Positions 34,247 through 60,229 of a stretch of 64,000 bases of DNA are shown in pieces (positions within the stretch are counted from its first letter, which is position 1; the number at the start of each line of letters is the position of its first letter). Origin of the DNA: Azolla caroliniana (Eukaryota > Plantae > Polypodiophyta); NCBI GenBank assembly GCA_043228905.1, contig JBHGNT010000014.1:20894001-20958000 (forward strand), read 5' to 3'. Under the pieces are notes generated by a model. That model had not been told where the DNA came from, searched no databases, and worked only from the letters and a program-made list of their open reading frames with translations. The translations under genes and the position numbers were made by a program.

Positions 34247-36239
34247 ATGACTTCCCAAGTCGATGCATCGATCTTTTCTGGCTTCGTCTTTCCGTACTGC
34301 ACCGGCAACCACAGGTCTTTGCATACAAGCATATCCCGCATCTTCGACTTCCACACTGAATAGTTGGAGCCGGTTAACTTGAACATTCCACCGAAATGTT
34401 CATCCATCACTCTGATACCACTTTGTTAGGATATGAACCAACCACAACCAGTTTCTCGTATACGTGTTCGGGTGCAAAGAAAACGAACAAGGAAATGTAT
34501 AGACAGAAAACAAAAGAACAGAAATACTCAGAAATGAGACACAAATATTTTATGTGGAAAACCCGAAAAAGAAAAACCACGGGGGTCCACAAACCCCAAG
34601 AAAACAAATCACTATGTGTACGTAGAGTTACTACTCTCACACACTCTCTCTCTCACTCACGGTTATAGAGGCAACTACCGTCAGTGTAACTCTTACAACT
34701 ATAATGATGATCACGTATCTATAAAGTTTTCCCTAGTTGTATTTATACATATACAATGTTCAAGCTATTTACATACATAGCCTAGAAGGGTTACATTTAG
34801 ACTATTTACATATATGGTCTCCCAATTTCGGTTTCGGTTTTCGATTTCGGCCTCAACTGAAATACTCATGGACTCCATTCGATTCTGTTCATTCTCCTTT
34901 CCTCAATTCGAGCTCTTCTTCCCATCCAGAGGGACCTATTCTAACAATCACAAGCTATACCTTAACGATCATGGAGCTATTGGACGCACTCGATTCAATC
35001 AATGTCAACATTGATGACGACGAAATGGTGCAAATATGTCTCGGTGTCCTAGTGCCACGGTTCACCAAAATGAGATCTATTGATTATCAAGCTCAACCTA
35101 GTCTAGTGTGTGAACACACCCTTTGAGAATCTATGAGCACTCAAAGGTCAAAAATCACCAGTACTCTCTACACATTAACTATGTGATATAGAATCATATT
35201 CTATGACACATAACTAATGAGTTTCCACAATCCCCATGACTCATGAGCTTCTATACCTCTAAAGAGAGAGGGTGACTGTATATAAAGCACCGTCCTCCTA
35301 CGTCATATAGAGCCGATTGTCCTCCTTTGTAATGCTACATTTTTGTTCATCATATTCTCCTTGTTATTTGCGGAGTTCGGATCGGCGTATACCCTTTTGA
35401 TGGCGAATCGGGCGGAGATGGTTGTCGAACACCCCCGAGCCTCACACTCACTTAACGATTAATAGATGATTAAGCACGATATCTCTCTCACTCTCTCAAG
35501 CTCGCTCTCATAGACAATAGGGTAATGAATATAGACAATAAGAGTAATGAATATGTTTATTAACCCTCTTGTTAAGAGGTCTAGCACCAACAAGGAAGAG
35601 AGATTAGTGTTCTCTAACTAAACACCTCACTAATCTCTCTTAAGTTTAAAGGTTACAAGAGGGAGGAGAGGAAGCTCTAGCTCTTAATCAATAGGGAGAT
35701 CTTTACAAATGGAAGAACCCTTACAAAGCCACCACAATGTGGTTTATATAGCATTTACATTTAGGGTATGGCCCTTTTACAGTTGGATGTCCCTTGGCCC
35801 TTTTTCCTCTTGCCATTTCCTCTTCATAGGTCCTTTAGCCATACTACGTCCTTGTTGATGCACTCTTCTTCATGACCGGTCGTGGTGCAATCCAAGCGCT
35901 TAACATCCCCCCCAACCTAATGAGTGCACACCCCTAGGTGCACTGTGGGAGGGGAGCTTCGGGCGTTGAGGGCGAGAAGGATAGAGTAGGGGGGGTTTTC
36001 GGGGGGTGGTAGGCGGCGAGGGTGGAGGATGTGTTGTCCGAGTGTTGTCAGAGGGCCTTTGTGTGCCTTTAAGGACCCGGACTCGTAACTCTTTTCAGGG
36101 GGGAAAAGGGGAGTCTATGAGGTAGTTCTATGGGGAATTCGGCCTCCTAGGTGCTGAATTTGGTCGATGCCTATTGACTTAACCTGGGCGGGGTATTTGG
36201 TTGATGTGTGCAATTGTCGGGTGTCCCGTGCAGTCGCGG

Positions 36240-37205
36240 TATGGTCGTGGGTGGGGAGCCGGCTTCGTTTCGGGACCCAGAATCAAGTGGCACCTTTGTG
36301 CCAACCTTGGGCATTTGTGAGTTCTTTTCAGACTCGCCAAACAACACGTTCTCTGCGGCGTGGTCCTTCGGCGAAAGTCGCGTGGACATTCACCCACTTG
36401 TGCGGCGTGGATGTCCTTGTTCTGATGTTAGCGTTACTCTGACCATGGGTGATCAGTGGTTGTGTGAGTTCTTTTTGGTTGGGTGTTTTCACGCTCTAGA
36501 GTTTGTCGAGATTGGTTGGGAGTGGTTCGAGTGTTGTTGCAACAAGTTTTTCGAACTTCACACCATTTGCAGTTTGGAAGGAGACAATGTTCTTGCTTGG
36601 TAATAGTAGACATTCGCTTTTGTGACACTAATCCAAACCGAGGAGGCAAGGTGTGTACAACACTTTCAATGGGAGGACCCTCACTAGAATTGAATGCTCA
36701 CTGTATTGTGCCTTGATTTTGCACACAAAGGCTCCGAGGTAGCGTGATGTGGAACCATCGAAGCCAAGGAAGTTGTCGTTGCACGCTTGGAGGTTTGGGA
36801 AACCTAGTGTTCCCACGTTTTGAAGGAGAAAAGGGTTAGTGATGCTCCGGTGTCAATTACTGTTGTTAGAGGTACACCGTTGGCAAAGCATGGTAGGTGT
36901 GTTGTCACAACATTAGGGTCTATCGACCTAGCAATAGTTGTAGGGTGGGCGACACCTTGTCTTTTCAGTTTCTCTTGCGCATTGCGAAGATCGGTTTCTA
37001 GTCGGGCCATTCGGCCTTCGGATGCTTGAAGTTTGGCTTCCACATCTCGTTGTCGAGATGTGAGTAGAGCTTCGAGGGTGAGGGGTTCGTAGAGACGTTT
37101 GAGCTTGCTCCCATTGATGAATCCTGGGATGTCGATTCCTTCGAGCGTGCGTATTTGACATGCTCCTGTCTTGGTAATCTCTGAGACTACATAGGGGCCT
37201 TTGCC
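36240..37205 (-). pseudogene. In-frame C-terminal extension of Gypsy D Pol: coiled coil + second retropepsin-like protease + WxPK tail
   Basis: After integrase: GKGPYVVSEITKTGACQIRTLEG...INGSKLKRLYEPLTLEALLTSRQRDVEAKLQASEGRMARLETDLRNAQEKLKRQG...ANGVPLTTVIDTGASLTLFS (DTG at 36854-36846), one frameshift, LGFPNLQAC..FLGFDGSTSRYLG...CLLGLD*CHK (stop where W is expected), then ...WRV*KELTNAQGWHKGAT*FWVPK. Confidence 0.75.
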
Positions 37206-40200
37206 TCATAATTTGAGCTTCTTTTTGTGTCGTTGAGAGGTGAATTTGAGAGCCATGTCCCCTTCAGCTAGATCCTTATCCCTTACTTTGTTATCGTGCC
37301 ACACCTTTCTATTGGCTTTCTCTGTCAAGAGTGCTTGGAATGCGAGAAGGCGAGTTTCGGTCAACCGTTGTAGGTTCTCTAGGCGTGATGGGAGGGGGTT
37401 CCCATCCCATCGTTCTTGAACGGCTATCCTGAGGCTAGGGATGAGGACCTCGATGGGAAGTACTTGTCCATATACTAGTTTGAATGGTGTGTGGAGAGTT
37501 GCTACTTTGTAGGAGGTGCGGAAGGCCCACAATGTGGCTTGGAGTTTGGTGCTCCAATCGATCGCGAAGCTACAATTATCTTCGTGAGCACTGGACATAA
37601 CACCTTATTAATGCTTTCCGCTTGATCATTGCACCAGGGTTAATAAGGGGAGCTCTTGCGGTGTGTCACCATAAACTCGCCTAGTAGGTGTGTTATCACC
37701 TCATTGAGGTAATGGGAGCCTTGGTCGCTAATGATCTCGAGCGGACATCCAAACCGTATGATGACATTTTCATATAGGAATTTGGCGGTGCTATGTGCAT
37801 CAACGTTTAACTTAACACAAGCTTTGGCTTCAGCCCAATTTGTAGCATAATCAATGGCGGTGATTATGTATCGATTGAGGTTGGAAGTTGGGCTAATTGG
37901 GCCGATAAAGTTGATTCGCCATTTCTCGAATGGTTGCTAAGCCACTACCGGGTTTAATGTGTTGAAATCCGCTTTTAACGGGTGCTTGAAACGTTGGCAC
38001 TCGTCACACCGGCGTACATACTTGTATGTGTCTTTGAATAGGGTTGGCCACCATAGGCCGGATTGGAGGATCTTGCGTGTGGTGGACTTGTGATTGAAAT
38101 GACCGCTTTTTCTTCCACAATGAGCTTGTTCGAAACAACGATGACATCATGGTCTGTTACACACCTTCGAAGTACATCATCGTTGCCTCTTCAATACAAG
38201 TTTCCTCTGAGCATCGTGAAGGGGCCACATTTTCGTAACAAAACACGTGCTTGTGCCCGACTTAGTTGTTGTTGGAAGGATGCTCCTTCGGTTAAGACAT
38301 GAACGATGTCTTATGCCCATGATGGTACAGTTTCGATCGTGAATAATGCAACATCTAGGGTTTCATCGTCGACTCTAGTGGCTTCTTCTCCATTTGGTAT
38401 TTGTGAGATGATCGACGAGTACATGGTCTTTTCCTTTTCTCACCACCACCTTGAAGTTGAACTCAAGTAGAGTTATAATCCATCGTGATATACGTCCTGT
38501 GGCGTGAGTCTTGTTTACCAAGTAGAGGAGGGCTTGATGATCTACAAAAAATGAGAAAAATGACGCCAAGAGGTAATGTTGGAACTTCTTCACGTTGTAA
38601 ACCATTGCTAAAGCTTCTCGTTCCATTGTGGAGTAATTTCGTTCCGCTGAGTTTAGCTGACGGCTAGCGAAGGTGATCGGTAGATTGAGTGCTCCTTCAC
38701 CAGGTTGAGCGAGTACCGCACCAATCGCGAAGGCAGAAGCATAAGTGTGAACGTGGAATTCTTTGTTCCAGTCTGGGGATCAGAGGATGGGGGCTTTAGT
38801 TAAGCACTCCTTCAAGAGCTCGAATGACAGGTGCACTCTTCTGTCCAGGTATACTGCTTTAGTAATGCGTAGAGTGGTCTTGCCTTGTCTACGAACATCT
38901 TAATGAAGCGTCTATAGTAACCCACGTACCCAATGCGTCCTTGTAGTTATTTCTCGTTCGCGGGTGGTGGCATGTCAAGGATGAGCTTTCCTTTTGCCTC
39001 ATTGATTGAGATCCCATGTCGGGACACACCATGACCTAATATGAGTTCGTGTTTGACCCAAAATTGACACTTGAGAGGGTTGAGGGAGAGTTGATATTCC
39101 TTGCACTTTTCGAACGTCAAGTAGAGTAGTGTCAGGTGGGCGTGCCATTTCGAATGACAACATAAATCATCGACGTAGGACTCCACCCCTTGTCGTAACC
39201 TTGTCGGGAAGATGTGGTCTGTTGCCCTTTGATAGGTGCTCAGGGCACTTGTGAGCTCGAAAGGCATTTGTTTGTACGCGAACGTACCAAATTCGGTTGC
39301 AAAGGCTGCCTTGTGTTTATCTTTGGGTGCCACCGAGATTTGGTTGTACCCTGAGAACCCATCGATGAAGCTATAGGCTTCTGCTCTTGCAACTCTTTCG
39401 AGTAAGTGCTCGATGTAGGGTACCAGGTAGTTGTCTTTGATGGTGGCATCATTGACTTGCCGATAGTCAACACATATGCGGATTTGGCCATTCTTCTTGG
39501 GGACGACTACGATTGGGGAGCCCCAAGTTGTTCGCTCAATCAGGTAGATGATGCTAGTGTCTAACATTTTATTGATTTCGGCTTTTACTTGTTGAGAGTA
39601 GTTAGGGTTCATTGGGCGCAGTCTTTGTTGGATTGGGCGGGCGTCGGCTTGCATGGGGATGCTATGGGTGATGACTTCGGCCGGTACACCTTTCATATCT
39701 ACATACGACCATGCAAACACGTCTCTAAAATTTGTGAGGAGGGTGATCAAGGACGTCTCCTCGTCCGACTAGAGATTCGTGGCAACGAACGTTGGTTTGG
39801 GGTCCACCCCATTTTCAAAGTTGATTTCTTTAACTCTCGCCGGTTCGTCAGATGCCTAGCCTAGGATGTTAGGGGTGCGTTGTGGTCTCTTACAAGCCAC
39901 TACCCTACTCCCTTGTTTGTAGAGTTTGAATTGCCCCAGGAAGTCCACCTCTGTCGAGGTCTTCCGAGTGGTCACATTCTCTTCCTTGCACGTGATTTGT
40001 TGTGCTAGGTCTTCGTATTTTACGTCCACCTGTTTTCGCTTGGGTACGAGAGTGGTGACATTAAAACCCGAAATCGTGTCTCCATCCTCATCGCCAAACT
40101 TTGTACCAATGGGGTACATTGCATGGGTCGTGGCGAGAGCATGCACCCAATCCATCTCGGACGCATAGGAAGCCACAGATTGGTCTTCCCTCGCATTCTT

Positions 40201-40279
40201 TGTCCTAGGGGTAGTGGATTTTTGGGGAAGGGGTTGGCCCCTAGCAAAGATTTGACCTGTCTTTGTGGGATTGCATGCT

Positions 40280-43200
40280 AGGAGGAAGATCAAATGCCTA
40301 CGATCGGATGGCGGAAAAGAGTACTTTTCCGGCCAATTCAACAGCTATCTACAACAAAAAGGAATTCGGCGAGAATTCAGCTGCAAATACACACTGCAAC
40401 AGAACAGTGTGGCCGAAAGGAAGAATCAGTCGCTGATTGATGCGGCTAGGGCAATGCTGGAGGAAAAGAGCATGCCCAAGTTCTACTGGGCGGAGGCGGT
40501 CCAAACGGCCATTTACATCCAGAACTGGATCGGGGATAAGGTGTCAGCTCACGAGCTGTATTTCGGGCGCAAGCCGAATTTGAGACACCTCCGGATATTC
40601 GGCAACATAGCCTATGTACATGTGCTGGATGAGAAGCGGAGAAAGCTGGATGCAAAATCGGAAAAATGCATCCTAGTCGGCTATGCTCAAGAGCAAAAGG
40701 GGTATAAATGTTTTAACCCCCGGACGAAGCAGGTCCGAGTCAGCCGAGATGTCGAGTTTGATGAATCGGCATCGTGGTATTCCTTACCAACTCCGACTTC
40801 CGATCTCGACCCGATGTCGGAGGATGGGGCTAGTGAGCCTGAACCGGCCCAGGTAGAGAAAGATGAAGTCAGGACTCAAGATGAGAGTCTGGAATCATTC
40901 CAGTTATGCGGACCGAATGAGAGACTGGATCAGTCCAACCAGTCGGATAATGAGACGACGAGTAATGGAGACTCTGTCGTGCTCTCCCTGCACAAGGGAC
41001 CGAGGAGACGGTTCACACGCAAAGAGAAAGGGAAGCAGAAGATGCCGGAATTCGAGACCGGCAATGATGAGTCGGATCGGTCCGTATCTGACTTCGGCAA
41101 GGACATAGGCAGATCTTTGGGAACGAAGACCAAACTGGCTAAGAAGGGTCTCATACCAGGTAACGGTGAGTTACGTCGGTCCACCCGCCAGAAGGATCCC
41201 GTTAAACGGTACGGGTATAACGAGTACATGGCGCATCGTTATGCGTACATGACCAAGGTCGCAGAAGTGCGTGAGTCGGAGAGCTACGCAGAAGCGGCAA
41301 AGGACGCAAATTGGCGTGCCGCTATGGAGGAAGAAATGCGGGCACTGGATGCCAACGGAACTTGGGACTTGGTTGACCCTCCCTATCACTATAAACCGAT
41401 CGGATGCAAGTGGGTGTAGAAGGTAAAGTACAATGCCGACGGTACAGTTAACCGGTACAAGGCCTGGTTAGTGGCGAAGGGATATGCGCAGACCCACGGA
41501 ATCGACTACGACGAGACCTTCGCTCCTGTAGCGAAGATGACGATGGTTCGTGTGGTACTGGCGGTTGCTGCGGCAAGGGGGTGGCATCTTCATCATATAG
41601 ATGTGAAGAATGCTTTCCTTCAAGGAGATCTTGAAGAAGAAGTCTTTATGACTCAGCCCCCCGGATTTCAGTCGAAGGTGAACAAGTCGGTGGTATGCTG
41701 GCTGAGGAAGTCGTTGTACGGCTTGAAGCAAGCCCCCCGTGCTTGGAATGCTAAGATCATGCACCGGTTGCGAAAGATGGGGTTTGTTGCCTCTAAGTCG
41801 GACTCTTCCCTGTTCATCCGTCAAGGCTCAAACAGTCTGGTATGTATCTTACTCTATGTTGATGATTTAGTTATCACCGGCCCAGGTCTTCCGAAAATCA
41901 ACCGCGTCAAGTCCCAGTTGTCAGACGCATTCAATATGAAGGACTTGGGGGACCTTCATTATTTTTTGGGGATCGAGGTGATCCGCACCCCCGACGGCAT
42001 ATTGCTTTCTCAACGCCATTATGTGTTGAATATACTGTACAAGTTCGGCATGACGGAATGTCGATCTGTCTCCACACCCCTGGACCGGAATCAGAAGATC
42101 TGTCCCAACTCTGGACCAGCCTGCGATGAGAAAAGGTTTCGACAAATAGTCGGAAGCCTGATCTACTTGACCATCACCCAACCCGACATTAGCTATTCGG
42201 TCGGAGTGGTAAGCCAATTCATGCAGAAGCCGACCATGGAGCACCTTCAGTGCGCGCAATAAATACTGAGGTATGTAAGCGGCACTAAGGACAGGGGGCT
42301 CTTATACCGGCAAGGTATAACCGAAGAGCTTGTCGGCTACACGGATGCAGACTGGGCTGGCAATGCAACGGATCGTCACTCAACTTCCGGCTTTATGTTT
42401 TCTCTTGGGAGCGCGACTGTTTCGTGGAGCAGCAAAAAGCAGCCAACAGTGGCTCTATCCAACACTGAGGTTGAATACCGGGGCGCGACCGTTGCCACCT
42501 GCGAAGCCATTTGGCTTCGGCGACTACTGCAAGACCTGCGGATCGAGGTACCGACCCCGATCCTGATCTACTGTGATAACCTCAGCAGCATGCAGCTCGC
42601 CAAGAACCCTTTGTTCCATGCTCGCACAAAGCACATAGAACTGCATTATCACTTTGTGCGTGAGCGGGTCCTGAGCGGTAAAGTTGAACTACAGTATGTT
42701 CACACGGATCGGCAAGTTGCCGACATCTTCACCAAGCCGCTCGGGTCGGACAAGTTGCAGCACTTTACCGAAATGCTTGGTGTTCAACATCTCGACGTGC
42801 CGCACTTGAGGGGGAGACGCAAGGGCAAAGACACTACCGAAACAGGCAAAGGCAAAAAAACTGTTGAACCCGTAGGTAAGAGAAGAACCAGTAGAGGTGG
42901 AGACAAGAAGAAAAATGAAGCCGAGTCGACGAAGGAAGTCGGCACATCCAAACAGGTCGGAGTGAGCGGCTGTGAAGAAGAAGTGTACACTCAGGAAGAG
43001 AAGTGCATGCTATGCGGAGGTCATCACGATCGTAATGGCCATGATGCGGAATCGAATGAAGAATTCGACTTCGGTGAACCGGCTAAAGAAGCCAAGGGAA
43101 GCACGGAGAAGGCCAAGACCCGGACGTGGTCCGATGTGGTGAGAGGCCTGAAGCTGAAAATCAAATCGGAGGATACCAATTCGGACAAGAGCTGGAACAA

Positions 43201-43949
43201 GTCGAAGACAGCCGATTCGGATCAACAGACAGATCCGGATGAGTTGGATCAACGAGAGGCCAAGGAGACACAGACGCAGCGGAAGTCGATGCCATCGCGG
43301 AGGAACCAACGGATCGGCAAGTGCCGGAGTCATAGCAGCGAAGGAGCTGAGATGGGCCTATTTAGCAGACATGCCGAAGGTCGAGGTGCGCAGAACCAAA
43401 GGGGTCGCGGCAAACGGGACCGGACCGGACAAGGAGCGCAAGCAAGGCGAAGCGACGCCAGGAGAAGTCGGTTGGAAGAACCGGCTGCCACAGAGGTTGA
43501 CACTACGACCCTACCTCAGGTTGAGCTTGAGGGGTAGTGTTGAGCGGCAAGCTCAACCGGAGCCGGATCGGCTGAATAAGCCTGAGCCGGTAAGCGAGAT
43601 GAATCGGTATGCCGGTGAGCAACTGAGCCGGTAAGCAGTAAAGACTGGTGAGCTGGGGAGCCGGTATGCCGGATCCAATCTGTAACCGGAAGCCTAGTAT
43701 AGGTTAGACTACTAGACAGTTATAGTCTCGTAGTTAGTGTCAAATGCTCGTGTGAGCATTGAAGTACACCGTACTTCTAACAGTCCCGTGTGGACTTGTA
43801 TAAATAGCTGATGAGCGCGTTGTAGATACAGAGCACCGAGTATTCATATAATTTTGGAAAATAGTGTGTTTTGCTCTCTCTCTCTCTCTGTCTGTCTCTC
43901 CCGCGTACTCTCTCTCTCTCTCTCTCTTTGTGTATTGTTCTTTCTAACG
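40280..43949 (+). mobile_element. Copia E, 5'-truncated (INT-RT-RH plus 3' LTR), inside Gypsy D
   Basis: Begins in integrase (KIKCLRSDGGKEY); RT ILLYVDDLVI, RH TDADWAG...KHIELHYHFVRE; in-frame stops at 41417 and 42260. PPT at 43526-43537, LTR 43538-~43949 (TGTTG...TAACG). The 5' half is deleted. Confidence 0.88.
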
Positions 43950-46900
43950 CTTCCGCAAGCAATCTTTTACAATCTCGAACTCGATGGTTTTTGACCAATC
44001 GTCCACGAGAGGACTGCCTTTTTGTTCATGAACTTTTTGTGTGTATGCTTTGATGTGGAAGGTTTTGTTGTTTTTACGCATATAGATTGTATCATTCTCA
44101 AAGTCCATCACAAGGCGGCTTACACGTAGGAATGGCCTCCCTAGTAAACACTCGTAAGCCACATGGTTGGATGATCTTGTGACGACGAAGGTGAGATTGA
44201 ACTTGACCCCGTGATTAGTGAAGTGGTGTGCAGGGATCATGCCTTCTGGCCGTTGGATAGACCCATCTGCCATTCAGAGTTTGACGTCCGAAGGAAGCAT
44301 TTTTGGGCTCCCCCACTAACACCAACATTCGCAGTTGACTATGCTTACCCCCACTCCAGTGTTGATGATCGTGTCACACGTTGTGCTGTTGACGCAAACG
44401 GGGAGAGTGAAACTAGTGTTGCCGCTCTCGAAATGAGCTCCACATATATCTATCAGCGTTCCTTTGGGTTGTTTGGGGACTATGGTCGTATGAGGGATGT
44501 GGGTGTGTATCTTCTCTCCATAACATGCTGACAGGCCTCCATTGAGGCGGCGAAGGACGTCATGCCATGGTTGGATGTCGAGTTTGAGCAACTCTTCAAG
44601 TGTGAACTCTATTTCTTTGGCGAGTATAGGTCGTAGTTTGGGGTTGTTGGTCACGAAGGTGCCGATGTAGCTCTGTACTTCGCGTAATGTTAGTCGTAAT
44701 TTAAAATTTAATATTTGTTGGAGCAGGATTGTGTTGACTTCTTTGATTGGGGTAGATTGGGGTAGATTGGGATGGGGGGGTCGGTTGGTGTTACGACAAG
44801 GGGGGGTTTACCCGTGTGTTGGGGTGGAGGATTTACCAAATCTTCGAGTTGGTCGAAGTTTAGGCTCGGGAGACTAAGCGACCCTTCGAATTGTTCGTGG
44901 CGTATGAGTTTGATGTACTCTTTGACCTTTTGTTTTTCAGCCATTGGGTTTGGGTATGCTGCTAAGTGTGCTGACAGCTCTTGGTTAGGGTTGACATCTA
45001 TCGTTTCTATGTCTCCCGCTGGTTCTTGATCTTGCTTTGAGGTCTGTGTGGATGCATTTTTTTTGGATTTTCGTCTCTTACACGTTGTCGAGGTATTCCT
45101 CGCGGATGCGTGGAGTGAGGCGGAACCTCTGAGGTCCTGTACCAAAGAGCAAGAGAGGAAGGAGTAGAGACCCTCTACGTGCGTGCGTAGATCCACAGGG
45201 ACACGGCCCTTCGACGCAAAGACGCAAGTGGGACAGCGACACAGAAAGACACGAATGTATGTATGTATTAACAAGGACAAACAACAAGAACACGAAGATA
45301 ACAAAACCACGAAGTCGGTTATAACCGAACAGGCCGGCGAACAGATGCCGATGCCTGTTCGTAAACGTACAGAAAGACAGGAGCAGGTTGGAGGTGCTGC
45401 CGGAAGCACTCGGGCATTCCTCAGAGCAGCGCGAGCCTCCCGAAACCTGCACAAAAGGAAGCTATGGAGTTTGCGAACCAGAGAGAGAGAGAGAAGCCTT
45501 CGCGCGCAAACCGACAGCACTTCGTCCTCGACTCTCCGCGCTCCCCTTTCCCCTCCTCGTCTCCCTCCTTTTTATAGGCGAGGAAGGAGCCGTTTCCCCT
45601 TTACTTCCTACCCACCTAGGATCTTCTATGGACAACATTCGAGAAGAGCCGGTTCCTACGCTCCTCTGCACCGATTCCACTTATGGACGGTTTTCTTCAC
45701 GACATCCGCCCCCACCTAACCTCGCATCCACCGGCATGCGCCAAATTGAGTTGGGACGGAGAAAACCGGTCCAGCCTTCATTCCCCGCCCGTCGGTTCTT
45801 CCTCGGTTTCCAATCGTTCGTCGTCGCGGTCCAGCCCAACCGGATCCGGCTCGTCGTCCTGACGCTTCTTGAACGCTTTGATCCGCTTCCCCGCTACCGG
45901 TATCGCCATTCTCGTACCGTCGAGTTCCGCTAGATGGTACGTCTCGTTGTCGTTGGCGCTTTGTACCACGTAAGGCCCGAACCACCTTCTTGCGAACTTC
46001 CGTGTCGCTCGGTGCTGGTTGTCAAGGCTACTGTCGTAGACTAGCACCTAGTTGCCTTCCTCGATCTTCTTCGGTCGGAGCCGGTGTGTCCGGTCGAACC
46101 GGGCTTTGTTCCTCATCCGTGCTTCCCGGAGCTTTTCCGCAGCCTGCTCCACGTCCTCCGGTCTTCGCTCGAGCTGTCGTATGCGCGCCGCCAACAGTTC
46201 CTCCCGGCTCATCTCGTCTCTCCAGTCCACGGTTGCCCATGAGGAGATCGTACGTTCCATCGGCATGACCGGCTTCTGCCCAAACATGAGTTCTGCTGGC
46301 ATGAATCCGGTTACCGAACTGTGCGTAGTTCGGTCCGCCCACAACGCGTAAGGCAACAGCCGCGGCCAGTTCCCGACTTGACCTCCGCATGCCCGAACTA
46401 ACGCCTTGACGATCGGTTCGTGTCCGCGCTCCACCTTTCCATTCGCCTCCGGATTGTACGCAGTGGTAAGCGAGAGCTTGACTCCTAGCCGGTCGAACAG
46501 CTCCTCGGCCTCTTCGGCGTCCAACTCCCCGCGATCAGCCACGATTTTCCCGACGCACCCGTACCGGCATATCACGTTGTCGAGATATTTCGCAAGTGCG
46601 TGTGGAGATGAGGCGGGACCGCGGGGGTCTCGAACCAAAGAGCAAGCGAGGGAGGAGAAAGAGGGAGAACCGGCTACGCAGGACCGGGGATTCACAGGGA
46701 CACGGCCCTTCACCACGGAGAACGCGAACAGACACCGACACAGACAGACGCGAACGACTAAAGATGTATATTAACAAAAATGGCTAACACGACTACAACC
46801 CTCGATGGGGCACAGGTTGGTTACAACCGAACAGGCCGGCGAACAGATGTCGATGCCTGTTCGCTTCGACGCACAAACGGGGTAGCCGGTCGGAGGTGCT

Positions 46901-47441
46901 GCCGGAAGCACTCGGGCGTTCCTCGAAACAGCGCGAGCCTCCTCGGAACCCTGCACAGAAAGCTATGGAGCTCAAGAAGGAAGGAAACAGAGAGAGAAGC
47001 GTCCAGAAACGGTCCGACAGCACTTCGTCCTCTCTGCGCGAGATGCCTGCAACAGCTCTTTCCTGCTCCTTATATAGGCCGACGAGCAGGCCGTCATGTC
47101 AGCTTTATTCCCTGTCCCTTTTGGACAGGGATCCGCTCCGTTCTTCACGCATCCGCGTAGTTACGCCGCCGACTCGTACAGTTCCTTAACTCGCGCGCGC
47201 GACCGAAAAGACTGTTCGCGCGGTGTTTGTCTCCACTTGTGTTAGGGCCCGTTCCTGCCGATTATCCTCCTAATTCGCTTTTATGTACAACTTGGAGCTT
47301 GCGCGCGTGAAGAACCGGTTCCCACGCCTAGGTGCACCGATTCCGCCTATGGACGGTTTTCTTCGCGACATCCGCCCCCACCTAACCGCGCATCCTCCGG
47401 TATGCGCCAAGAGAGTTGGGACGGAGAAAACCGGCCCGTCT

Positions 47442-50400
47442 TCATTCCTCGCCCGTCGGTTCTTCCTCGTTTCCGGATCGTTCGTCACTGCTGACTAGGA
47501 GAGCCGGGTCCGGCTCGTCGTCATGTCGCTTCTTGAACCCTTTGATCCGCTTCCCTGCAACCGGTATTGCCACTCTCGTGCCGTCGAGTTCCGCCAGGTG
47601 ATATGTCCCGTTGTCATTGGCGCTCCGTACCACGTAAGGCCCGAACCACCTTCGTGCGAACTTCCGTGTGGCTCGGTGCTGGTTGTCGAGGCTGCTGTCG
47701 TAGACGAGCACCCAGTCACCTTCTTCGATTTTCTTCGGTCGGAGCCGGTGCATTCGGTCGAACCTGGCTTTGTTCTTTGTCCTCGCCACCTGGAGCTTCT
47801 CCGTAGCCAGTTCCACGTCCTCCGGTCTCCGCTCGAGTTGTCGTATACGCGCGGCCAACAACTCCTCCCGGCTCATCTCGTCCCTCCAATCGACCGTTGC
47901 CCATGAGGAGATCGTCCGTTCCATCGGCATGATCGGCTTCTGGCCGAACATGAGCTCCGTCGGCATGTACCCGGTTACCGAACTGTGCGTGGTCCGGTCT
48001 GCCCACAAAGCATAAGGTAGCAGCCGCGGCCAGTTACCGACTTGGCCTCCGCATGCCCGAACCAACGCCTTGACGATCGGCCCGTGTCCGCGCTCCACCT
48101 TGCCATTCGCCTCCGGATTGTACGCAGTGGTGAGCGAGAGCTTGACTCCCAGCCGGTCGAACAGCTCCGCGGCTTCTTCGGCGTCCAACTCCCCTCGGTC
48201 AGCCACGATCTTCCCGACGCACCCGTACCGGCATACCACGTCCTCGATTAGGAACCGACAAACGGCCGCGGTCGTTTTGTTCGGAAGGGCCCGGCCTTCC
48301 ACCTGGTTCGTCAGATCCTCCCGCGCTAGGACCAGGTACCGCATCTGTCCTACTCCCATTGGCATCGTTACCAGATCTACCATCCATTTGAAATGGATGG
48401 CCGGAGGGTACGTAGGGTGGAGCTCGTCTCGATGTCGGACTATGGAGTGCATCTGACAGCTCTCGCAAGTTGTCACGAACTGATGCACGTCCTGGTACTG
48501 CCCCGGCCACCAATACTTCCCCTTCAGTTTCTCAAACGTAGCCCATGTTCCACGGTGTCCAGCCCAAGGGCTGTCGTGGTAGGCCGCTAGCAGCTCCTCC
48601 TGATCTTCCTTCATTGCCACCACCCGGAGCGGGACGCCGTTCCTCCTCTTCGGGTGCTTCCACAAGTATCCGTCCCGGAGAAAGAACCGGTACGCTTTCT
48701 TCCGGATCCGGTTGGCCTCGTCCTTCGTCCATGACGCATCGGGCGTCATTGTCTTCAAAAACCCACCGATCTGCAGCCACTCCCCGTCGTACTTGCTCGC
48801 GTCGAAGTCGTTAAGCGCCGGAGTGCTTGTCCCGTCGGTTGTTACATACGCAGTCTCGAAGAAGTCCACGCCGACCTCTTCGTCCTCCGAAATCATGCCG
48901 CTCTCGTCATCGAATCTCGCCCTCGAAAGCATGTCGGCCATGGCGTTGTCTTTCCCGGAAATGTGTCGTATTCCCGGGTCCAGGGACTTGATGTACGCTA
49001 TCCACCTGAGCATTGCCAGGTCCGGCGTCGCGCATCCGGAAACCATGCCGAGAATCGGCATGCAATCCGTCTCTATGATTACCTCTGTCCCGATCAGATA
49101 GTCCTTGTCGGCTTTCACCGCCGAAACGATACCCCAGAGTTCGCGTTTAACCTGGGCGTATCCTCGCTGCCGTTCGCTGAGGACCTTCGCGCCGAATCGG
49201 ATCGGAAACCGATTGCCGTCCTCATCTTCTTGGTTGACGACCCACCCGATTCCGGTCGGACTCGTGTCAACCGTTATGTACACTGGGGTGCCCTTTCTGT
49301 AGACGGCCTTTCGGAGCGCCGGTGCTGCCGAGAGAGCCTCCTTCAGCTTCCGGACCGACTCCTTGTGCTTGTCTAGCCATTCGAATCTTCGCCCTTTCCT
49401 CAATAATCCGTATAGCGGCTCCGCAACATGGGCGTAATGCGGGATCCATATGTGGTAGAATGCGCATGCCCCCAGGAATCTACGTACTTCCGTGACCGAG
49501 CCGCAGTCGGGCTTCATCGCGGAGATGGCTTCTACCTTTGCCGGAGACGGTTTCCGGCCATATGGCCCACATAAGTGTCCGACCACCATGATTTCCGACT
49601 GCCCGAAGGCTGATTTCTCCCCCGAGAAGGTGAGCCTCGCATCCTCTAGCCTTTGCAGCACCTTCTCGCAGTCGTCGATGTGCGCCATCACGAATCGCCG
49701 GCATCCGTCCGGCCCGACCGTCTCGTCCTTCTCTTCTACCGGGCATCCCTTGATCGGGATGTCGTCTAAAAACGGCATGGTGATGTCCGGGATGCAGTCC
49801 CTCAGCACCTTGTTCATCGCATTCACCATGTGGGCCACCGAGTTGGTCCCTCCTTGCGGCAGCGTACACATCCGCACTAGGCCGAGGGGAGTTCGCATCG
49901 TCGTAATGTCTCTGCTTTCCACGGCTAGCTAGAACTGGTCGTACCCTGAGTATAGATCACCGACCGAGTAAATCGACCTTCCGGCGAAGGCCTCCGCGAA
50001 CTCGTCTATGGTCGGTCCGATCCCTGCGTTCCGAATGGTCACTCTATTGACCGGCTGCAGGTCCTGAATGAAGCGCAATGATCCGTTTTTCTTTGGCACG
50101 GTAAACCAGCGGTTTGAATACGGGGCGCTCGACGGCTCGAGAATGCCCATATCAACTTTCTGCTTCAACAGCTCCATCAACTTCGGGATGTGAGCTCTCG
50201 GAACCGAAATTGGCTTGAGATTCCACGGTACATGCGGTACCGTGAATATCACCATCGGCTCTACGATCGTCGGGTCCACGCACCCGATTTCCTCCGGCGA
50301 GAATGCGAAGGCTTTCCCGTGCCTTCCGAGCATTCTCCGGAACCGGTCTTCCTCCGCCGGCAGTAGGAACCCGCCCCCACCGATCTTCAGCTCGCGGAGC

Positions 50401-50930
50401 GTCTCGTTGGTGAAGGTGTGTCCTATGCAGGCCCGATCTCGTAAGCTGGGGTCCGATGCAACCCCTTTAATCCGGGATTCACTGCCCTCCGGTAAGGGCG
50501 CCGCAACTGGCCTCACCTTCCGGTCCACCGTCTTGTACTTGGTGCTCACTCGGGCCGTCCGTTCCGACTCGAGCCCTCGACCGAAGTCCGCGATGACTTC
50601 GTACATTTCTTCGGAACATACCGGTATCGTCCGGTCTTCGTTAAGGTCTTCTTCGACTACCTTCCCCAGCATTCCCAAGGTGTCGTCGAAAGAGACTGCC
50701 TCCACGGCTCCGTTGATTCCTTCGTCAGGGCCGAGAACTCCGCATGCCCGAAGTCTCCCCTCCGTCTTTGTTTTCTCTCGGCCGGTGATGCCGACCATCG
50801 TACATGCTCCGCTGTCGGAGAAGCAAAATTTCCTACCTATTGTACACGGTTTTATCGTACAGATGTGGGGTTTTCCCGGAGCATCCGGACTGTCGCGGCC
50901 CCACGCCTTGGCAGTCCTCTCTAAAAATCC
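47442..50930 (-). CDS. Gypsy G Pol (RT-RH-INT), entered in the -1 frame; one premature stop at 49929
   Basis: Open frame from GGA at 50930. Motifs YSNRWFTVPKKNG, FIQDLQPVN, GDLYSGYDQF, LPQGGTNSVA, PFLDDIPIKG, VDTSPTGIG, HISGKDNAMADMLSR, HDSPWAGH...CESCQ, ADRGE, YNPEANGKVER, WFGPY. No chromodomain. Confidence 0.9.
50865..50930 (-). promoter_or_regulatory. Putative -1 ribosomal frameshift signal (G_GAU_UUU + pseudoknot); second copy at 56497-56563
   Basis: G GAT TTT TAG ends gag; a 6-nt spacer precedes the stem GGACTG/CAGTCC, whose loop GTGGGG can pair with a downstream CCCCAC. The same layout is present in Gypsy F. Confidence 0.75.
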
Positions 50931-53047
50931 TCTCGGTTTTCGGAACCGAGGGAATCGCGGTTACGTTCGTGGTTCGGCCGTACCGTCAGAAACTGGACCG
51001 AATGGCGCCCGTCTTGGCTTTTGACCCTTGCGTAGGCCGAACCATTGTCCAGCACTTTGGTCTCCATTTGCGCCGCCGTGATGTACGGCTCTCCCAGAAT
51101 GACCGGATGCGAAGACGTCTCCTGCACGAAGAAGTGCTGGTCAATCTCGACGTCGCCGATCTTGACTCGCACATTCGGACAGGCCCCGTGCAGTTCCTCG
51201 GTGGCGCGCGTTGCTGCCCTTATTTTCCACCCGTGCTTGGTGTTGATCGGCCATTTGCCCTTCTTATAGAAGTCCATGGACATCAAATTGATCTCCGATC
51301 CGTGGTCCACCAAAGCTATCACCGGTTCCTGGACATCGCCGATCTTTACCGGGGTTTCCGTGGTCGCTCGGGCCCAGTGTGGTCTCGAATAGTGGCTTTC
51401 CGCCCACTCGTCTCCCAGCGCCATGTCGTCTAGGTGCGTCGTCCGCACTTCCACCGGTCTTTCCGGTTCTGTCTCCGTCGACAGCCTCTTCCGTTTCACC
51501 AAGTCCACGATGGAGTCGTGGAACTCCTTCTTGGCGATTCCCAGCACCTCTCGTAACGACAGCTCCACCTTGCTGTCGAGGATCCGTTCCTCCAGGACCT
51601 TTCGTAAGTCCGTGGTCCTTTCTATCTCCGTCCCCAGACGGTACCCGCCCTTCTGGGGTTTATCTTGCGTACCGGCCCCGCCGGCTTCGTCCCGTCGTGG
51701 CCCGGACCGGGTCTCGTATCGTTGTGAGGGCCCGGTCGTCCCGGGTCTCCCCACCCGCTTCTCTTCTACCAGAGCCTCGTAGTTCTGGCAAGCGGCTTCC
51801 GCGAAGCCCGTCCTTTCCTCGACCGGGTCGCTCCACCCGGTCATCTCCCGTACCCGTTTCTCCGCACGGTCCGATTCCTCCCCTTTAAGCCTTGCACCGG
51901 CAAGGCCTTCCAGCATCGTCGGCCAAAATCCGGCTTTGCTTTCCCTTCGGGCCTCGCCGCCCCCGACTCGAATGCCGGCCGACGCCGAGTAGTGGACGGT
52001 TTCCGCGTGTCGGGCCGCCGCCTCTTCCATCAACCTTTTCATACCACCTTTTCCGTCGTTTCGGCTCAGGGCCCTTCGGGTGTCGCTGGCATGCACCCGT
52101 CCTTCCCACAGGTACACCACCCTGTTCCTCAGCGCCTCCGCGAAGTCGCCGCAGTCCTTCCGAATGTGGCCGACTTCATCGCACCACATGCACCTGTTTC
52201 CTGCCGCCGGCCGTCGGTCACGAGCTGGTTCGCCTCCTTCCCTTCGGGCCTGCGCGATTTGGAGGTCCTTTATCGCCTTCGTCAATTCCTCCAGCGCCGC
52301 TCCTCCGGTTGAGCCTCTGACTACGCCGGTCGAAGCCGAACCGGTATCCAACCACTCTCGGGTCTCTTCCTTTCGCACCTGTGGCGCTGGTTCGAGCTTC
52401 CTTGCTGCGACCGAGCCCGACCCGGTTGCACCGTTATCCGCCCATTCTCGCCGTTTGTCGAAACGGCCACAGACCTTCCTGACAGCCGCCCAGTCGGTAG
52501 TGAGCCCGTCTTCGGTTTCCAGCAAGAGGCCCACGTGCTCCCGATCCCGTTCGTCGACCGACTTGACAAACAGCAAGACCCGGCTCGTGTCCAGGATGGT
52601 TCGGTCGAGCGCCGAAAGGCGCGCAAAGTTTTCCTCGAACTCCCGGAGGAGCGCCGACGCGTTTCTTCCCTTCCCCGGGGACTCCACCCATTCCATGAAC
52701 CTTCGCTTCGAAAGCCGGAGCGCGTCGTCCAGCCCGTATTTCTCTAGGAGCCGACCTTCGAACTCCTCCCAGGTACGGCTCTCCGTCCGCACCTCGAGCA
52801 CCTCCGCATGGATGCTCGGCATCGCCACTCAGGGAAATCCGGCAAGACGCCTTTCTTCCGGAATGTCCCGCATCAGCATCTCTGCACCGTAGGACGCCAA
52901 ATACTTCGTGGCATCCTTCCCATCGAACCGGCCGATCGTGCCGACGACCGCCTCAATAGCTCTGTCGAGGGCACCGGTGATCTCGCGCGCGTTTACAATC
53001 CGATCCACGGCCGAAGCCATGGCCTCTGCGAGATCCGACCCCCTCAT
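50921..53047 (-). CDS. Gypsy G Gag-protease ORF (one premature stop at 52829)
   Basis: MRGSDLAEAM...FDGKDATKYL..., zinc knuckle CMWCDEVGHIRKDC, protease ALVDHGSEINLM...VILGEPY, ending ENREDF*. The internal TGA corresponds to CGA (R) in Gypsy F. Confidence 0.85.
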
Positions 53048-53069
53048 CTTCTGCTCTTCTGCCGCCTCT

Positions 53070-53087
53070 TTCACGTCGGGTTCACCA
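53070..53087 (-). promoter_or_regulatory. Primer-binding site complementary to tRNA-Trp (identical site at 58701-58718)
   Basis: Minus strand TGGTGAACCCGACGTGAA, 4 nt after the 5' LTR. It is complementary to ...TTCACGTCGGGTTCACCA, the 3' end of plant cytosolic tRNA-Trp(CCA) as recalled from memory. Confidence 0.8.
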
Positions 53088-56000
53088 AAGATGTCGAGAT
53101 ATTTCGCAAGTGCGTGTGGAGATGAGGCGGGACCGCGGGGGTCTCGAACCAAAGAGCAAGCGAGGGAGGAGAAAGAGGGAGAACCGGCTACGCAGGACCG
53201 GGGATTCACAGGGACACGGCCCTTCAGCACGGAGAACGCGAACAGACACCGACACAGACAGACGCGAACGACTAAAGATGTATATTAACAAAAATGGCTA
53301 ACACGACTACAACCCTCGATGGGGCACAGGTTGGTTACAACCGAACAGGCCGGCGAACAGATGCCGATGCCTGTTCGCTTCGACGCACAAACGGGGTAGC
53401 CGGTCGGAGGTGCTGCCGGAAGCACTCGGGCGTTCCTCGAAACAGTGCGAGCCTCCTCGGAACCCTGCACAGAAAGCTATGGAGCTCAAGAAGGAAGGAA
53501 ACAGAGAGAGAAGCGTCCAGAAACGGTCCGACAGCACTTCGTCCTCTCTGCGCGAGATGCCTGCAACAGCTCTTTCCTGCTCCTTATATAGGCCGACGAG
53601 CAGGCCGTCATGTCAGCTTTATTCCCTGTCCCTTTTGGACAGGGATCCGCTCCGTTCTTCACGCATCCGCGTAGTTACGCCGCCGACTCGTACAGTTCCT
53701 TAACTCGCGCGCGCGACCGAAAAGACTGTTCGCGCGGTGTTTGTCTCCACTTGTGTTAGGGCCCGTTCCTGCCGATTATCCTCCTAATTCGCTTTTATGT
53801 ACAACTTGGAGCTTGCGCGCGTGAAGAACCGGTTCCCACGCCTAGGTGCACCGATTCCGCCTATGGACGGTTTTCTTCGCGACAACGTCCTCGATCAGGA
53901 ACCGACATACGGCCGCGGTCGTTTTGTTCTGAAGGGCCTGGCCTTCTACCTGGTTCATCAGATCTTCTCGAGCCAGGACCAGATACCGCATCTGTCCTAC
54001 TCCCATCGGCATCGTCACCAGGTCTACCATCCATTTGAAGTGGATGGTCGGAGGGTACGTAGGGTGAAGCTCGTCCCGATGTCGGACTACGGAGTGCATC
54101 TGACAGCTCTCACAAGTCGTCACGAACCGATGCACGTCCCGGTACAGTCCCGGCCACTAGTACTTCCCCTTTATCTTCTCGAACGTGGCCCACGTTCCAT
54201 GGTGTCCAGCCCAAGGGCTGTCGTGGTAGGCCGTCAGCAGCTTCTCCTGTTCTTCCTTCATTGCCACCACCCGGAGTGGGATGCCCGTTCCTCTTCTTCG
54301 GGTGCTTCCATAAGTATCCGTCCCGGAGAAAGAATCGGTATGCTTTCTTCCGGATCCGGTTTGCCTCGTCCCTCGTCCATGACGCATCCGACGTCATCGT
54401 CCTCAGAAACCCACCGATCTGGAGCCACTCGCCATCGTACTTGCTCTCGTCGAAGTCGTTAAGTGCCGGAGTGCTCGTCCCATCGGCCGTTATGTACGCT
54501 GCCTCGAAGAAGTCCACGCCGACTTCTTCGTCCTCCGAAACCATGCCGCCCTCGTCATCAAACCTTGCCCTCGAAAGCATGTCGGCCATGGCGTTGTCTT
54601 TTCCGGAAATGTGTCATATTTCCGGGTCCAGGGACTTGATGTACGCTATCCACCTGAGCATCGCCAGCTCCAGTGTCGCGCATCCGGAAACCATGCCGAG
54701 AATTGGCAGGCAATCCGTCTCAATAATTACTTCTGTCCCGATCAGGTAGTCTTTGTCGGCCTTTACTGCCGAAACGATACCCCAGAGTTCGCGTTTAACC
54801 TGGGCGTACCCTCGTTGTCGCTCACTGAGGACCTTCGCGCCGAATCGGATCGGGAACCGAATGTCGTCCTCGTCTTCTTGGTTGACGACCCATCCGATCC
54901 CAGTCGGACTCGTATCCACCGTTATGTATACCGGGGTACCCTTCCCGTAGACAGCCTTCCGGAGCGCCGGTGCTACCGCAAGAGCTTCCTTCAGCTTCCG
55001 GACCGACTCCTTGTGCTCGTCTCGCCATTCAAATTTTCGCCCTTTCTTCAGCAACCCGTATAGCGGCTCCGCAACGTGGGCGTAATGCGGGATCCATATG
55101 TGGTAGAATGCGCATGCCCCCAGGAACCTCCGAACTTCCGTAACCGAGCTACAGTCGGTCGTCATCGCGGAGATGGCTTCTACCTTTGCCGGAGACGGCT
55201 TCCGGCCATATGGCCCACATAGGTGTCCGACTACCAGGATTTCCGATTGCCCGAAGGCCGATTTCTCCCCGGAGAAGGTGAGCCTCGCATCCTCTAGCCT
55301 TTGTAGCACCTTCTCGCAGTCGTCGATGTGTTTCGCCACGAATCGCCGGCATCCGTCCGGCCCGACTGTCTCGTCCCTCTCTTCCACCGGGCACCCTTTG
55401 ATAGGGATGTCGTCTAGAAACGGCATGGTGATTTCCGGGATGCAATCCCTCAGTACCTTGTTCATTGCATTCACCATGTGGGCCACCGAGTTGGTCCCTC
55501 CTTGTGGCAGGGTACACATTCGCACTAGGCCGAGAGGAGTTCGCATCGTCGTAATGTCTCTGCTCTCCACGGCTAGCTGGAACTGGTCGTACCCCGAGTA
55601 CAGATCACCGACCGAGTAAATCGACCTTCCGGCGAAGGCCTCCGCGAACTCGTCTATGGTCGGTCCGATTCTTGCGTTCCGAATGGTCACTCTGTTGACC
55701 GGCTGCAGGTCTTGAATGAAGCGCATCGTTCCGTTTTTCTTTGGTACGGTAAACCATCGGTTCGAGTATGGGGCACTCGACGGTTCGAGAATGCCCATAT
55801 CTACTTTCTGCCTCAATAGCTCCATCAACTTCGGGATGTGAGCTCTCGGTACTGGAATCGGCTTGAGATTCCACGGCACATGCGGTACCGTGAATATCAC
55901 CATCGGCTCCACGATCGTCGGGTCTGCGCACCCGATCTCGTCCGGTGAGAATGCGAAGGCTTTCCCGTGCCTTCCAAGCATTCTCCGAAACCGGTCTTCC

Positions 56001-59000: not shown

Positions 59001-60229
59001 AACGTACAGAAAGACAGGAGCAGGTTGGAGGTGCTGCCGGAAGCACTCGGGCATTCCTCAGAGCAGCGCGAGCCTCCCGAAACCTGCACAGAAGGAAGCT
59101 ATGGAGTTTGCGAACCAGAGAGAGAGAGAGAAGCCTTCGCGCGCAAACCGACAGCACTTCGTCCTCGACTCTCCGCGCTCCCCTTTCCCCTCCTCGTCTC
59201 CCTCCTTTTTATAGGCGAGGAAGGAGCCGTTTCCCCTTTACTTCCTACCCACCTAGGATCTTCTATGGACAACATTCGAGAAGAGCCGGTTCCTACGCTC
59301 CTCTGCACCGATTCCGCTTATGGACGGTTTTCTTCACGACAACGTAGTCGTGGGGAGGCCTTGGTCGTGACACTTTAAGTTATGAGCTACTCTTTGAGCT
59401 CGTGTGATGACGTTGGCGCCAACAGTTGATGATACGATAGATAACATATTTGTGCCAATCTGTGTCTTTTTTTCTGGGCAATAAGGTACTAGTGTTCTTT
59501 ACAACACCATGGGCATGATGCTTCTCTTTGGAACCACTCGATAAGGTCCTGTGACTGTTGGCTGAGACTTTGCACTGGTGGTTGTGGGGGTATCGTGGTC
59601 GTTGTGCCATCCGGTTGTAATACTGATGTTTGGTTGGGCACTCGCTAACCATGTGTGGGCCTTGGCAATTGAAGCATTTCAATTCTGACCTTCTTAGACC
59701 ATTGTTGTTGCGATATCCCATCGATGGGCCCCTCTGTTCTCCTCTCAAGACGTACACTGGTATTTGGTCGCCTTCGAAGTCCACAAAGTGGGAAAGCACC
59801 TCTTCTTCAACACCGTACTCCCGGTATGAGTCTTCGTATGCGGGGGCACCCCCCCAACTTGGGTTTGGTTATTGGTGGCGTATTCTAGTTCGGCGAGGCG
59901 AGCTCCGATGCGCGGTAGTGGGGGTTGTTGGGGAAGTATTGCTGGTAGTTGTGGGAAGTATTGGTGGTGTATTCTATTTTATACTTTTACAATTGATAAA
60001 TTACAAAATCTCCCTCATTTAATTTTGAACTCCTCCTTTTGATATAATAACATTTGTGTCTTGAGTGATCTTGAAGGTAACATTAATCTTTCCGAAGGCA
60101 GTATCTTGGGCGTTTGAACTTCGATTCATGAATCGAAAATTGCTATATGCTCCTCGTCATAAGCTCCAGATGGGAAATGTCTTTCTATAGATTTTTGGCA
60201 TTGTTTTGACATTGTGAAGTGTTATCTTC

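Follow-up and report, generated by a model that had tools for sequence, protein, structure and literature searches.

In the reference classification of plant LTR retrotransposons (REXdb; PMC6317226), the accessible text names only aRH, CHD, CHDCR and eORFs as extra features; no protease figures there among the eORF domains, which are those present in at least five elements, and the word "fern" is absent from the main text. The lineage described here, which carries a second retropepsin (PR2) after its integrase, shares with Athila/OTA, as presented in that source, a single GAG-PROT-RT-RH-INT ORF, a primer-binding site (PBS) for tRNA-Asp, a 5-bp target site duplication (TSD), the lack of a chromodomain and of aRH (neither was matched by Pfam in six long polyproteins of the PR2 lineage) and a long 3′ region with extra ORFs, which in Athila often belong to PF03078. 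Unlike the PR2 lineage, Athila has no extra polyprotein domain in the REXdb account. By this likeness in layout the PR2 lineage appears to work as an Athila/OTA-type Gypsy element; it is not filed here as Athila, a placement that is not established by a tree without labelled reference rows. Its PBS and TSD differ from those of Phygy and Selgy.

Other elements and viruses offer partial parallels. Tat elements with aRH, the aRH-less Z1/Z2 included, are described in the accessible text of PMC10508981 and PMC13468544 as plant Gypsy elements that took up from elsewhere a second copy of an enzyme class already in Pol, located after the integrase in one of the structures. Their additional domain is an RNase H, whereas that of the PR2 lineage is a protease; the native RH of dual-RH elements typically degrades according to the available accounts, whereas both proteases of the PR2 lineage keep the catalytic motif. 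The same portions of these two papers mention no second protease in fern Tat structures, and the rotifer ORF3s covered in the accessible part of PMC5408684 are env, GDSL and DEDDy. Chromoviruses share with the PR2 lineage an in-frame folded domain after the GPY/F motif, theirs being a chromodomain and that of the PR2 lineage a retropepsin. In plant viruses, the tandem leader proteases of closteroviruses and P1a/P1b of ipomoviruses are second or self-cleaving proteases with a host-dependent or maturation role, and an ophiovirus movement-protein domain, itself a DTG retropepsin, carries out the maturation of the protein to which it belongs (accessible text of PMC6357015). However, these are RNA viruses and not LTR elements, and their likeness to PR2 would be one of function. 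The initial annotation had considered the two-protease architecture undescribed; the architecture proved to be real, family-wide and under selection, and no description of a post-integrase protease was found in the accessible full-text literature, outside subscription journals, Repbase and GyDB.

The element was encountered as a decayed copy in the window, the whole 64,000-nucleotide stretch of Azolla caroliniana DNA that was analysed. It has the Ty3/Gypsy order GAG-PR-RT-RH-INT, and paired TG...CA LTRs, PBS, polypurine tract (PPT) and TSD are present in other copies. All parts of the element lie on the minus strand: a gag continuation with the zinc-knuckle region (59328..59951), Gag's C-terminal part or linker upstream of the canonical protease (44421..45079), that protease (PR1; 44070..44420), the reverse transcriptase (RT; 39005..39650, with YVDD at 39166-39177), RNase H (38420..38776) and the zinc-binding and core domains of the integrase, which are frameshifted (37299..38185). 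A plus-strand insertion with Copia-type integrase/RT/RH lies nested between PR1 and RT (~40285..43973, ends approximate), and the gag continuation lies past a nested array of another Gypsy family (~45080-59327). This array is arranged in tandem, with the RT motif FLDD and repeated LTR-like blocks. The extent first proposed for the element, 35362-40270, was too small, since nested insertions split the element and gag reaches 59328-59951.

The integrase C-terminal domain (CTD; 37089..37298) contains the GPY motif, as GKGPY at 37191-37205, with a stop immediately before it in the window copy. From this motif, an open frame passes through a long charged helix (36954..37088), which joins the CTD to PR2 (36560..36905), and reaches VIDTGAS at 36840-36860, with DTG at 36846-36854. 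After one frameshift near 36807, the next frame contains LGFDG (36754-36768), LLGLD (36631-36645, with a stop after it), AQGW (36301-36312) and WVPK (36268-36279). The last two motifs belong to a W-module (WVNV...AQGW...WVPK; 36259..36399) within a basic low-complexity tail (36118..36570) that has several stops in this copy. A PPT (35906..35918) adjoins the 3′ LTR (TG...CA; 35362..35905), for which the match to either LTR of other copies is 83-93%; these are the only termini visible in the window copy, and a search of the window and of the 20 kb beyond it gave no 5′ LTR. The motif coordinates confirmed the initial description of a Pol frame running past GPY into a retropepsin and an AQG/WVPK tail, disrupted by a single frameshift and stops, as well as the NTG triplet reported at 44355-44363 in PR1.

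Searches of the 523-Mb genome (G000) confirmed that the two-protease polyprotein is a trait of the lineage and not an oddity of the decayed window copy. The piece from GPY to PR2 and a PR2-only query each gave at least 150 scored matches. Since queries containing PR2 select for PR2, the integrase core was also searched alone; this gave about 75 matches of at least 76% identity, followed by those of a different family at about 55%. A second Gypsy family of this genome with 55% identical integrase (C18:11194066, C13:17135758) has many open frames of ~1,850 aa and is apparently young. Among the 30 best integrase-core loci, chosen on integrase only and including L135 and L136, which may be a single locus assembled twice, PR2 lay within 1.5 kb of the integrase in 26. 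The remaining four were all deleted or interrupted, and none of the 30 ended cleanly after the integrase. One exception breaks off after the integrase core and another is interrupted within the helix; L147 (= L048) is split by an insertion, with PR2 found further on, and in L140 the stretch between mid-CTD and tail is deleted in frame, so that GPY, helix and PR2 are lost and the tail is kept. Any one stop between integrase and PR2 was common to at most 6 of 40 copies, and a programmed stop or read-through at this position was ruled out by the lack of a shared stop. An origin of PR2 as a separate insertion with its own boundaries was likewise ruled out, as PR2 is in frame with the integrase at a fixed spacing and is not bounded by any LTR match.

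The assignment of PR2 as a retropepsin, first made from its motifs, was borne out by profile and structure analyses of the post-integrase region. PR2 of unbroken copies exceeded the Pfam gathering cut-offs of gag-asp_proteas (PF13975; 31.5 vs 28.2 bits) and Asp_protease_2 (PF13650; 30.3 vs 24.3 bits), whereas the window fragment by itself scored weakly (E 0.05). PR2 carries the clan AA signature, D-[TS]-G with a downstream hydrophobic-hydrophobic-G motif. AlphaFold2, with a 16-row alignment as input, predicted a small beta CTD, a single continuous helix of 42 residues, a retropepsin (pLDDT ~77-92 over most of the domain) and a low-confidence tail. The best Foldseek match to PR2 was the RVP domain of human DDI1 (E 2e-8, TM 0.77 by target), and Ddi1-type retropepsins (PDB 3s8i, 4rgh, 4z2z) were the best structural matches, at TM 0.69-0.80 by target; these share D[TS]G and LLGLD-type motifs with PR2, but only 15-23% identity. 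Because LTR proteases share this fold, the likeness does not show capture from a host Ddi1. A viral fold library likewise gave general retropepsin matches and no specific donor, the Ddi1 likeness also being generic.

A PR2 homodimer was predicted with a score of 0.65, the best of three controls scoring 0.00; its runs had contact agreement of at least 64% and pLDDT of at least 80, with Asp-Asp and Thr-Thr contacts central. In calibration, the same mark was reached by 21/30 solved pairs and 0/23 single chains from microbes, and by 17/29 pairs and 0/30 single chains from eukaryotes, including 1/7 pairs that had no older solved relative. As Ddi1 dimers are solved, the pass shows likeness only and may reflect memory of those dimers. 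Thus, the models predict a Ddi1-like fold and a homodimer joined at D-T-G.

The initial annotation had proposed comparing the two proteases by conservation of the D-T/S-G triplet, dN/dS and phylogeny. The triplet read exactly DTG in PR1 of 22/34 copies and in PR2 of 27/48 genomic copies, with departures in both mostly of the C>T/G>A decay type. PR1 read NTG in 3/34 copies, the window copy among them, and D[TS]G in 5/5 unbroken polyproteins examined; the NTG of the window copy is decay of that copy. Constraint was expressed as omega, a simple count, made without a tree, of alleles common to several natural copies and either synonymous or non-synonymous, with values inflated by recurrent CpG-type decay. 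With alleles present in at least 2 of the same 17 copies, omega was 0.40 (0.24-0.61) for PR2, 0.18 (0.10-0.30) for PR1, 0.09 for RT, 0.14 for the integrase core, 0.22 for the CTD and 0.17 each for the helix and the W-module. The linker after PR2 served as a neutral control and gave 1.5 (0.87-3.0). When alleles in at least 3 copies were counted, the values were 0.32 (0.16-0.63) for PR2 and 0.12 for PR1. Both proteases are below 1; the PR2 confidence interval excludes 1, and by this count PR2 is under purifying selection. Its constraint is 2-3 times weaker than that of PR1 and the weakest among the folded domains. Shared amino-acid variants occurred at 39/113 PR2 sites (36 copies) vs 11/117 PR1 sites (20 copies), and at none of the 16 residues around the PR2 DTG (VIDTGASLTLFSFETW).

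These results bear on the suggestion that PR2 replaces PR1, which would mean that Gag-Pol maturation passed to PR2 from a dead PR1. The window NTG fits this suggestion, but PR2 does not replace PR1, because PR1 reads DTG in most copies. In addition, PR1 is intact in every unbroken polyprotein, has the lower omega (0.12-0.18) and groups with the proteases of sister elements (see below). By these comparisons a takeover by PR2 is refuted at the family level, and we give it next to no credence.

Relatives outside the genome were found by profile and full HMMER searches. Among 1.84 billion representatives, phmmer gave 158 matches, several of which cover CTD, helix and PR2 at 26-35% identity; a word-index search of proteins, for which the query was one copy's post-integrase region, gave 0 matches among proteins of 477-1519 aa. 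Unbroken single ORFs with Gag-PR1-RT-RH-INT-PR2-tail reach 2,450-3,230 aa; their source is public assemblies, in which several copies may have been collapsed into one. P0158, P0159 and P0161 (2,454-2,553 aa) belong to the same family as the window copy, and P0169, P0174 and P0185 (~3,200 aa) have RT 59-62% identical to that of P0158. In a distant subfamily (P0153, P0169, P0174), the zinc-binding (H2C2) region of the integrase occurs twice in tandem. PR2 identity between subfamilies is 22-29%, against 59-90% for RT: P0185 and P0186 share 90% in RT, 75% in integrase and 29% in PR2, and P0169 and P0185 share 62% in PR1 and 27% in PR2. Among 26 post-integrase proteases of relatives, 6 of them from close kin of the window family, the Asp is kept in 24 and D[TS]G is exact in 17. 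Among 30 relatives looked up, two are from the fern Adiantum nelumboides: P0014 has DTG after the integrase, and P0009 ends at LLD. An integrase-helix-PR2 protein close to P0009 (P0006; RYA42775.1 / WP_139158370.1) is recorded from a 1,653-bp contig of Enterobacter cloacae complex sp. GF14B and is probably plant DNA in a bacterial assembly.

The carriers of PR2 form a single group. Among the 120 best RT-INT relatives (1,404-4,468 aa), only in P0152, P0185 and P0186 did the polyprotein of a single element close with a protease; the majority of the others stop 90-160 aa past the integrase core, and several with long tails lacked a protease match. A quick RT-RH-INT tree built from 47 selected single units placed the 7 PR2 carriers together (SH-aLRT 99), and their sisters lacked PR2. 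The clade fell outside a 12-row angiosperm clade, in an unresolved group that includes Riccia elements. Some proteins of Cordylochernes and angiosperms appear to have two proteases but were left out of the count of carriers: the extra protease in these models precedes another RT or ends a tandem repeat, and they look like concatenated gene models. Most concatenated models were left out of the 47-row tree, in which P0212 and P0247 formed the outgroup. Four further proteins (P0039, P0056, P0085, P0101) have two tandem retropepsin domains and no RT in the ORF; they lie apart from PR2 in the protease tree.

In protease trees, the PR1s of the clade grouped with the proteases of sister elements (88/96), and the PR2s were long-branched and apart. 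A clade of PR1 plus PR2 was rejected (AU p=0.007) and PR2 monophyly was neither established nor rejected (p=0.31), in a test with 121 columns, 31/92 rows and long branches. Within one element, PR1 and PR2 share 22-27% identity. These topologies show PR1 and PR2 to be of separate ancestry. PR2 as a duplicate of the clade's own PR1 was rejected by the same test; an older duplication or a capture is possible. Within the explanation favored below, a single acquisition of PR2 by the lineage is the likely reading. This separate ancestry and the weakest constraint among the folded domains would also suit a passenger without function, namely a fragment of another element acquired by capture or read-through. 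However, the omega intervals exclude 1, and subfamilies with ~60% RT identity retain the frame, the order, the motif and the W-module. A passenger would explain capture and not retention; this reading is already largely refuted, and we regard it as very improbable.

The tail after PR2 is a second conserved part of the C-terminal extension. The motif W-x-x-K/R-x-L-x-x-(A)QG[WYF]-x-x-G-x(3-4)-W-[VLI]-P-K was present in all subfamilies examined, and the W-module (omega ~0.2) is kept in distant relatives. It occurs once in the window's subfamily and is duplicated in another (L034, L036, L037, L044, L048 and kin), with 96 residues between the two. The tail is basic (K+R 13-16%). No membrane span was found in the tail, all 19-residue windows of six C-terminal regions being below a hydropathy of 1.6, and an Env-like membrane protein was thereby ruled out for this region. 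The W-module matched no Pfam family and was modeled at low pLDDT; Atlas gave a lead of only 0.75, and Atlas features for a distant relative, scored 0.80, are a lead only.

Other copies supply the termini and the 3′ region. In five long copies the two LTRs are 96-98% identical to each other, and in five short ones 97-99%; 5-bp TSDs are readable in L034, L038 and L080, and the PBS of other copies shows complementarity to the 3′ end of tRNA-Asp(GTC) genes of the host. The genome also contains large tandem arrays matching the tRNA-Asp(GTC) 3′ end (C3, C8, C10, C11, C15; L091-L094; 150 matches); tRNA-Asp, the primer tRNA of the family, was confirmed in 4/4 array loci scanned. Long copies measure ~14-15 kb and have a sense block of extra ORFs of 3.5-5 kb between tail and PPT, which the window copy lacks. 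These ORFs reach 852 aa, with coiled-coil and proline-rich parts (L114, L115, L117, L118, L119, L120); a Pfam scan of 6 of them from long copies gave no family match, PF03078 included. Two non-autonomous deletion types (L038, L042, L071-L080; also L051, L054, L064-L066) lack RT, RH and integrase core; in them gag-PR1 runs in frame into PR2 and the tail. The first type was amplified with its own LTR pairs (97-99% identical), and no PR2 constraint was detected in it, with omega of 1.03 (0.47-3.55) in 12 copies, a comparison of little power. In one deletion type, micro-homology at the junction could explain the kept frame.

Collectively, sequence comparison establishes an in-frame fusion, a retropepsin match, purifying selection, one carrier clade and separate PR1 and PR2 ancestry. 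We suggest, with about even confidence, that the window holds a decayed copy of a non-chromovirus Ty3/Gypsy element whose PR2 is an accessory protease, acquired once, likely active and likely cutting the C-terminal extension off the integrase rather than serving core maturation. PR1 would carry out normal Gag-Pol processing, and PR2 would be produced one-to-one with integrase; pairing of integrases through the long helix would bring two PR2 domains together as a dimer. A short hydrophobic strand lies between helix and PR2 in 12/12 proteins compared; presumably it resembles retropepsin cleavage sites. PR2 may be released at this candidate site, and may then free or trim the basic W-motif tail. 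The fast drift of PR2 would mirror co-evolution with few, variable sites. PR1 could in principle cut the same junctions, and the need for a second enzyme would then be unexplained.

The helix, the dimer and the tail also suit a different role, in which PR2 is a non-catalytic or barely catalytic module: helix and PR2 dimer would clamp two integrases, and the tail would bind nucleic acid or chromatin, in the position of a chromodomain. The location after GPY, the length of the continuous helix, the predicted homodimer, the basic tail and the strong constraint on helix and W-module are consistent with this role, and the Thr of DTG is also used in building the dimer, so that structural reasons could account for the retained motif. 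However, a pure scaffold need not keep the Asp, which is retained in 24/26 relatives at ~25% identity, and the candidate cleavage strand would part PR2 from the integrase. We consider this role unlikely.

An accessory protease that is active could instead act on host proteins in counter-defence, carried to chromatin or RNA granules by the integrase or the basic W-motif tail. PR2 keeps its catalytic motif while the remainder diverges far faster than PR1, RT and integrase, and in plant viruses a second protease can have an accessory role that depends on the host (closterovirus L2; accessible text of PMC6357015). Within the family, however, omega stays under 1 and PR2 gives no sign of positive selection, and fast drift fits relaxed constraint equally well. 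We regard host-directed activity as a doubtful alternative. In its fullest form, which we hold to be similarly improbable, a clade of fern LTR retrotransposons would have captured a second retropepsin as an integrase-delivered effector aimed at silencing or chromatin proteins of the host, and the W-motif tail would serve to address it; if this were true, PR2 would be the first retrotransposon counter-defence protease.

Whether retrotransposons turn accessory proteases on themselves or on their hosts, in the way of plant RNA viruses, is a question that can be put to a direct test, as the 115-residue domain is easy to express. For annotation, a protease match after the integrase is not always a nested element. 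The accessible text of the reference plant LTR classification (PMC6317226) has one polyprotein protease, with chromodomains and aRH as recognised add-ons; the retention by an old lineage of two catalytic-type proteases, different in ancestry, within one polyprotein is a new architecture, with a parallel in the dual RNase H of Tat and retroviruses. PR2 provides a clean diagnostic for a non-seed-plant clade. The architecture is real, selected and lineage-defining, and is apparently undescribed, and its likely function would be that of an accessory protease.
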